Below, one piece after another: positions 3,411-4,134 of a stretch of 14,550 nucleotides of DNA (positions within the stretch are counted from its first letter, which is position 1; the number at the start of each line of letters is the position of its first letter). Position numbers and translations under genes: made by a program. The notes under the pieces were generated by a model. The model was not told where the DNA came from and did not search any database. It saw nothing but the letters and a program-made list of their open reading frames with translations. Origin of the DNA: Escherichia coli (GTDB lineage Bacteria; Pseudomonadota; Gammaproteobacteria; Enterobacterales; Enterobacteriaceae); NCBI RefSeq assembly GCF_003334335.1, contig NZ_QOWQ01000060.1. One strand, written 5' to 3'.

Positions 3411-4134
3411 GCCTAATTATGACAGGTGTAACAAGCATATTTTGCTATATAAATAAAATACATAATACTGATTATTGTAAGAACAGGAAGCAGACTAATG
3501 GTTTTTTTTGTGAGCACATTCCTTCTTATGTAGGAAGAGGCTGTATTATATTCAGTCAACTCTTTTTTACTAAAAACATTATCTATGCCATCAAAGTTGC
3601 CTGCTAGCTAATTTTTAGGATATCGCCTTGTCGTGGATTATGCACTCTAAACATGTAGAAGGTATTCATTACAAATACACAGACGGCCATCTTTTGTAAA
3701 ATGGATGCCGTTTTAAGTGAGATTCTGATTTTCAAATTGTTCCGGACTGAGACCGCCACACCAACTGTACCATCGCCAGCGATTGTAATCGCACTCGATA
3801 TAATTAAGTAAGTTTGCTGATTTTGCTGTTTACTGCGACAGATGTAAAGCTGTGGTGATTCATGCAGACTAAGTTCACGAACTCCGGCAGTAACACCGAT
3901 GCATTCTGCAAGCTTCAGATCTTAACTACGAAATTCATGCGAATGGTGTTTACGTTTTTTTACTGGTTGAAACTGTTTTGTCTTGTGAATCACCTCTGAC
4001 TGAGAGTTTACTCACTTAGCCGCGTGTCCACTATTGCTGGGTAAGATCACAACACTTTAAAATGCCCTATATAGGGTTAACCAGTAATTATCTGTATGAT
4101 AGCTTTGAGTTCGGGAGGAGGTAATGACTCCAAC

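Follow-up and report, generated by a model that had tools for sequence, protein, structure and literature searches.

A start-less 105-codon frame upstream of a YmgB/AriR-family gene in Escherichia coli as a probable by-product of an internally deleted IS3-like element

A stop-free run of 105 codons, located near the fec operon within a 14,550-nucleotide stretch of Escherichia coli DNA (contig NZ_QOWQ01000060.1; the whole stretch is hereafter called the window), is best explained as the by-product of an internally deleted, terminally truncated IS3-like element in the E. coli chromosome, a reading to which we assign a probability of about 0.95. The remnant is evidently of IS3-group ancestry, since it aligns significantly and collinearly with both IS3 ends in nucleotide and in protein sequence. 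It is also an ordinary and already known remnant, as RefSeq annotates both of its pieces as pseudogenes. The features of the window are collected in Table 1.

Translation of the minus strand of 3604-3924 gave a TAA (3922-3924), 105 sense codons (3921 to 3607) and a TAG (3604-3606). This is the frame described in the original prediction, and the end of the translated peptide matched the quoted peptide exactly. The frame was said to have no usable start, and we found no ATG, GTG or TTG upstream of codon 55; the only in-frame entry in the open reading frame list is a 51-aa ORF beginning with GTG (3604..3759, minus strand). The surroundings are AT-rich, as claimed (local GC 0.32-0.41 versus 0.55-0.64 in the fec operon), and the run does lie directly upstream of the 97-aa ORF (3117-3410, minus strand) in the same orientation, with 196 bp between them (3411-3606). 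The suggestion that such a length is unexpected by chance holds only weakly. Using 2000 dinucleotide-preserving shuffles per region and counting a run in any frame, runs of at least 105 codons arose in 155/2000 shuffles of 3000-4130, 124/2000 of 3050-4130 and 76/2000 of 3411-4124, that is, in 4-8% of shuffles, depending on the boundaries used.

Alignment of the minus strand of 3560-4130 with K-12 IS3A (NC_000913.3, 315229-316483) by blastn produced two collinear matches with a deletion of ~895 bp between them. Window positions 4046-3812 correspond to IS3 nt 1-235 (88% identity, E=1e-82) and positions 3807-3696 to IS3 nt 1131-1242 (84% identity, E=1e-31). By blastx, the frame of the 105-codon run (frame -3) matched InsE residues 10-58 at 76% identity (E=7e-20), and frame -2 matched InsF residues 255-288 at 79% identity (E=4e-16). 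The parts are arranged and oriented as in IS3 (insE/insF; IS3 group), with ~85% nucleotide and 76% protein identity in the orfA 5' region and 84% nucleotide and 79% protein identity at the orfB 3' end. Unlike IS3, the remnant is without nt 236-1130, its right repeat is 13 nt short at the outer end, and its orfA carries a mutated start, a nonsense codon and indels.

A functional IS3 family element has TG...CA terminal repeats, an orfA encoding a helix-turn-helix (HTH) protein, a frameshifted orfB with a DDE domain and a 3-bp target-site duplication. The left end of the remnant, which reads TGATCTTACCCAGCAATAGTGG... from 4049 to 3990, retains the left terminal inverted repeat beginning 5'-TG, and the non-coding leader differs from that of IS3 at 1 of 62 positions. 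At the other end, the terminal GTGGGTAGGATCA that would complete a right repeat ending CA-3' is replaced by the unrelated AT-rich AAAAGATGGCCGT, which cannot be aligned to the IS3 tail. Only ~57 of the 99 orfA codons are left, and they lack a start codon: the insE ATG has become AAG at 3984-3982. A 1-bp deletion near 3979 and a 2-bp deletion near 3955 jointly restore the frame, the 22nd codon has changed from GAA to TAA (3924-3922), and there is a 3-bp insertion relative to IS3 at 3857-3855. No orfB with a DDE (rve) domain reached by a -1 frameshift is present, both the frameshift site and the DDE core having been deleted with nt 236-1130. The homology, breakpoints, frames and disabling mutations are all directly observed.

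Table 1. Features of the window (positions in the 14,550-nucleotide stretch) and the basis on which they were assigned
Feature	Position	Strand	Basis or remark
End of IS66 transposase (TnpC)	1-787	+	RefSeq annotation, E2865
Phytase-like esterase	1026-2384	-	RefSeq annotation, E2865
IS3-family C-terminal scrap	2666-2797	+	RefSeq; no blastx match to IS3 InsF
IS5/IS1182 scrap	2862-2992	+	RefSeq annotation, E2865
YmgB/AriR-family small protein gene ('97-aa ORF'), intact	3117..3410	-	Pfam YmgB PF10798, i-E=7e-6; RefSeq CDS 3117-3398
AT-rich spacer, 285 bp	3411..3695	-	Not IS-derived, unannotated; always found with the remnant and the YmgB/AriR-family gene
105-codon stop-free run	3607..3921	-	Translation; read as a chimaera of three unrelated segments, not a gene
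Run codons 1-36	3921-3812	-	Ancestral InsE codons in their true frame, downstream of the acquired TAA
Run codons ~37-75 (~39 codons)	3811-3696	-	Junction, insF 3' end and inner right repeat, one frame off
Run codons 76-105 (30 codons)	3695-3607	-	Non-IS spacer DNA, 89 nt
Whole IS3-like remnant, ~354 bp	3696..4049	-	IS3 nt 236-1130 and the terminal 13 nt of the right inverted repeat missing
Inner right inverted repeat, IS3 nt 1226-1242	3696..3712	-	Terminal 13 nt (GTGGGTAGGATCA) missing
insF/orfB 3' end, last ~31 codons plus TAA at 3715-3713	3713..3807	-	blastx; wrong frame in the 105-codon run
Deletion junction, 4 nt TTAC	3808..3811	-	Aligns to neither IS3 flank; frame switches from insE to off-frame insF
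Decayed insE/orfA 5' part, ~InsE residues 1-57	3812..3984	-	blastx; RefSeq pseudogene 3811-4015
Left inverted repeat and leader	3985..4049	-	First 57 nt identical to IS3; terminal TGA at 4049-4047 precedes nt 1
72-bp tiny pseudogene between IS3 left end and IS1 end	4053-4124	+	RefSeq; elsewhere 20-aa hypothetical protein WP_113705808.1
IS1F copy, pseudogene with internal stop	4135..4832	-	RefSeq; between IS3 remnant and ykiE-fecI
ykiE, 22-codon small protein gene	4919-4987	-	Annotated; between IS1F and fecI, opposite strand to fecI
fecIRABCDE	5124-12669		RefSeq annotation, E2865
Frameshifted IS3-family transposase	13567-14550	-	RefSeq; downstream of fecE

Profile searches added little. A Pfam search of the orfA fragment, with its stop replaced by E, returned no family even at E<=10, and an NCBIfam search of the 105-aa translation and of the reconstructed orfA fragment returned none either. 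The true-frame insF piece aligned with positions 345-369 of 369 (the last 25) of NCBIfam transpos_IS3 at E=0.0047, a score far under the curated cut-off, as expected for a piece of only 32 aa. Profile methods fail on fragments this short and degraded; what decided the matter was direct comparison with InsE and InsF. The RefSeq annotation (PGAP) independently lists 3713-3817 (minus strand) as a pseudogene 'IS3 family transposase, missing N-terminus' and 3811-4015 (minus strand) as a pseudogene 'hypothetical protein; frameshifted; internal stop; missing C-terminus'. RefSeq records carry the label used by PGAP for remnants of this kind ('IS3 family transposase; incomplete; partial in the middle of a contig') at this exact locus. 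The present assignment departs from that annotation in nothing substantial: PGAP calls the orfA fragment a 'hypothetical protein' and leaves the two pieces unconnected, where we see a single deleted element.

The composition of the run accounts for how the original prediction fared as to its nature. Its suggestion of a decayed gene without a start applies to the first third of the run, which is in the InsE frame, with the ATG now AAG and a TAA at the 22nd codon; it fails for the run as a single gene, the middle ~39 codons being off-frame insF and the last 30 spacer. Nor is the run the 3' fragment of a gene, the orfA piece being a 5' fragment. No intact longer gene was found at the syntenic locus: in all ~1700 E. 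coli genomes with the locus, the match spans the deletion junction unbroken. What keeps the 105-codon frame open is only the accidental lack of stops in its off-frame and spacer parts, which fits the 4-8% frequency seen in the shuffles.

We infer the following order of events. An IS3-like element would formerly have occupied this site in minus-strand orientation. A deletion of ~895 bp would then have removed orfA from about codon 58 onwards, together with the frameshift site and almost the entire orfB gene, with its DDE catalytic core lost in full. This would have fused orfA codon ~57 to the ~31 codons that end orfB, placed in another frame. The right inverted repeat would have lost its outer 13 nt, and orfA would have gained its start-codon mutation, small indels and nonsense codon. 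The orfA frame would thereby have been left open from the nonsense codon (3922-3924) to the TAG in the spacer (3604-3606), through 36 orfA codons, ~39 off-frame orfB codons and 30 spacer codons. Such a remnant is immobile, because no transposase can be encoded and only one usable end is left, and it would have been passively inherited within an AT-rich, IS-littered patch next to the fec operon.

From the pattern of divergence, the parent was probably not IS3 itself but a separate IS3 isoform that had once been functional. The 34 mismatches to IS3 in the coding parts fall 7, 6 and 21 on codon positions 1, 2 and 3. This concentration at third positions, together with the near-identical leader, implies that the 12-16% divergence built up for the most part before the parent stopped functioning. 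The left end (3985-4049) is identical to IS3 over 57 nt, versus 84-86% identity in the coding parts (3696-3984). Across 5426 E. coli genomes and 72,556 plasmids, no intact element reached 95% identity to the remnant, whose best non-self matches there were IS3 (~88%) and ISEc16 (~79%). A second IS3-family scrap in the window (2666-2797, plus strand) was considered as the missing part of the remnant and ruled out, having no similarity to IS3 or InsF.

We next consider the DNA downstream of the remnant. The 97-aa ORF shares 30% identity with K-12 AriR (blastx, E=2e-6); RefSeq gives the gene as 93 aa (3117-3398) in this strain and 97 aa (294 nt) in others. The locus thus resembles the K-12 ycgZ-ymgA-ariR-ymgC operon in having a downstream ORF of the YmgB/AriR family, and differs from it in that the upstream DNA (3411-3921) is dissimilar to YcgZ, YmgA and YmgC, the K-12 operon partners of AriR, and in that its open frame is IS-derived. 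On the same blastx comparison, the run does not qualify as the partner gene of the 97-aa ORF that had been proposed. A decayed ycgZ/ymgA/ymgC-like partner was also rejected for the wider region, since blastx of 3050-4130 against these K-12 proteins gave only chance-level matches (E>4) apart from the match to AriR itself. The spacer taken alone had no blastx match to YcgZ, YmgA, YmgC, InsE or InsF.

The distribution of these parts was likewise observed directly. Many E. coli chromosomes match bases 3050-4130 with 100% identity, and ~1656 of 5426 complete genomes contain 80% or more of this segment. The spacer (290-bp query, 3411-3700), which carries no annotated feature, was found at ≥90% identity in 1696 of the 5426 E. 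coli genomes and the remnant in ~1700, so that remnant, spacer and gene-containing stretch (~1656) co-occur nearly one to one. Distant blastn of the spacer across the 5426 E. coli genomes returned the same locus only, with no weaker paralogous or 'empty-site' versions, and yielded no site in its pre-insertion form and none with the element intact. The association of remnant and gene is most simply explained by co-inheritance (hitch-hiking).

The remnant is also present in ~50 plasmid records. The block comprising IS1, the deleted IS3, the spacer and the YmgB/AriR-family gene (window 3117-4832) is carried, without fec, by IncF plasmids from E. coli and Salmonella Typhimurium; two such plasmid copies span 6233-8834 of locus L005 and 4233-5950 of locus L006. 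In pMRSN346647_113.1 the block has IS1 copies on both sides, resembling an IS1 composite transposon with an ariR-like gene.

The chromosomal setting is one of repeated scarring. The whole window is 100% identical to positions 5518749-5533298 of the E. coli E2865 chromosome and places the remnant just upstream of fecIRABCDE. The short pseudogene at 4053-4124 is probably a scrap of the gene into which both IS elements inserted. An intact IS1 transposase occupies the position of the window's IS1F pseudogene in strain EC-16-526. Typical GC content in E. coli is ~51%. Base composition steps from 31-41% GC in the island at 3000-4130 to 55-64% GC in the adjacent fec genes (5200-12600), and both values depart from that norm, which fits separate foreign origins for island and operon. 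In K-12 and B, the fec operon lies within KpLE2, a phage-like element (PMC3032704). This location and the IS scars (IS66, IS3-family, IS5 and IS1) around a horizontally acquired fec operon fit repeated insertion and deletion at the site.

Among the alternatives, we weighed an exaptation of the remnant, or of remnant plus spacer, as the promoter or 5' regulatory region of the YmgB/AriR-family gene, the open frame being incidental. The remnant lies directly upstream of the gene in the same orientation, the two and the intervening 285-bp spacer accompany each other almost without exception, including where plasmids of E. coli and Salmonella carry them apart from fec, and one sigma-70-like match (3848 to 3820) points towards the gene. 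All copies are ≥98% identical, however, so hitch-hiking is enough to account for the linkage, and no locus without the remnant was found for comparison. The promoter scan returned 4 sites against 4.2 expected from shuffles, the site in the remnant scoring only 9/12; a combined promoter and terminator scan of the region gave nothing above background, and an Rfam scan gave no match. We consider this role unlikely. We hold it quite unlikely, too, that the remnant has been kept for transcription signals or a 5' leader and that IS1, the deleted IS3 and the ymgB-like gene form a functional cassette moved by IS1 between chromosomes and plasmids.

That the run encodes a real small protein, from a non-canonical start or the internal GTG (3759), for instance a domesticated fragment of the InsE HTH region, appears very improbable. 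There are 105 open codons in DNA of ~40% GC and the first 36 derive from the InsE helix-turn-helix region, but this part lies upstream of the sole start, so would stay untranslated, leaving a product of off-frame orfB and spacer codons. The product has no family match, and PGAP calls a pseudogene here. Six alleles were compared, those of the window, ATCC 8739, two further chromosomes and two plasmids (98-99.6% identical). Inside the run they differ at 7 substitution sites, of which 1, 4 and 2 are at first, second and third codon positions, with neither a third-position excess nor any other sign of selection on the frame among these alleles. The frame is intact in 5 of the 6, which, being ~99% identical, carry little information on constraint; in E. 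coli EC-16-526 it is cut to 67 codons by a 4-bp TATA insertion at 3803. This insertion lies just downstream of the deletion junction, in the insF-derived part, and the EC-16-526 allele has further substitutions (98.1% identity). In the spacer, the window allele has one A fewer in a homopolymer near ~3510 than the five others. On these grounds we infer that the run is not translated. Equally improbable is an ORF of purely chance origin, in AT-rich non-coding DNA that was never part of a gene. Equal-length runs in the shuffles and a GC content by codon position (0.49, 0.36 and 0.38, though the segments are too short for this measure to tell much) that is not gene-like overall are what such an origin would give, but two thirds of the run derive unambiguously from IS3 orfA and orfB, on the nucleotide and protein matches given above. 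As a description, chance is refuted by this homology for 3696-3921 and is correct only for 3607-3695.

The deleted IS3-like element thus offers a textbook case of how an internally deleted IS can leave a long start-less frame through the out-of-frame joining of two gene fragments, although in itself it matters little. For genome scans, these findings suggest that a start-less frame next to an IS end is best checked against IS libraries before anything else.
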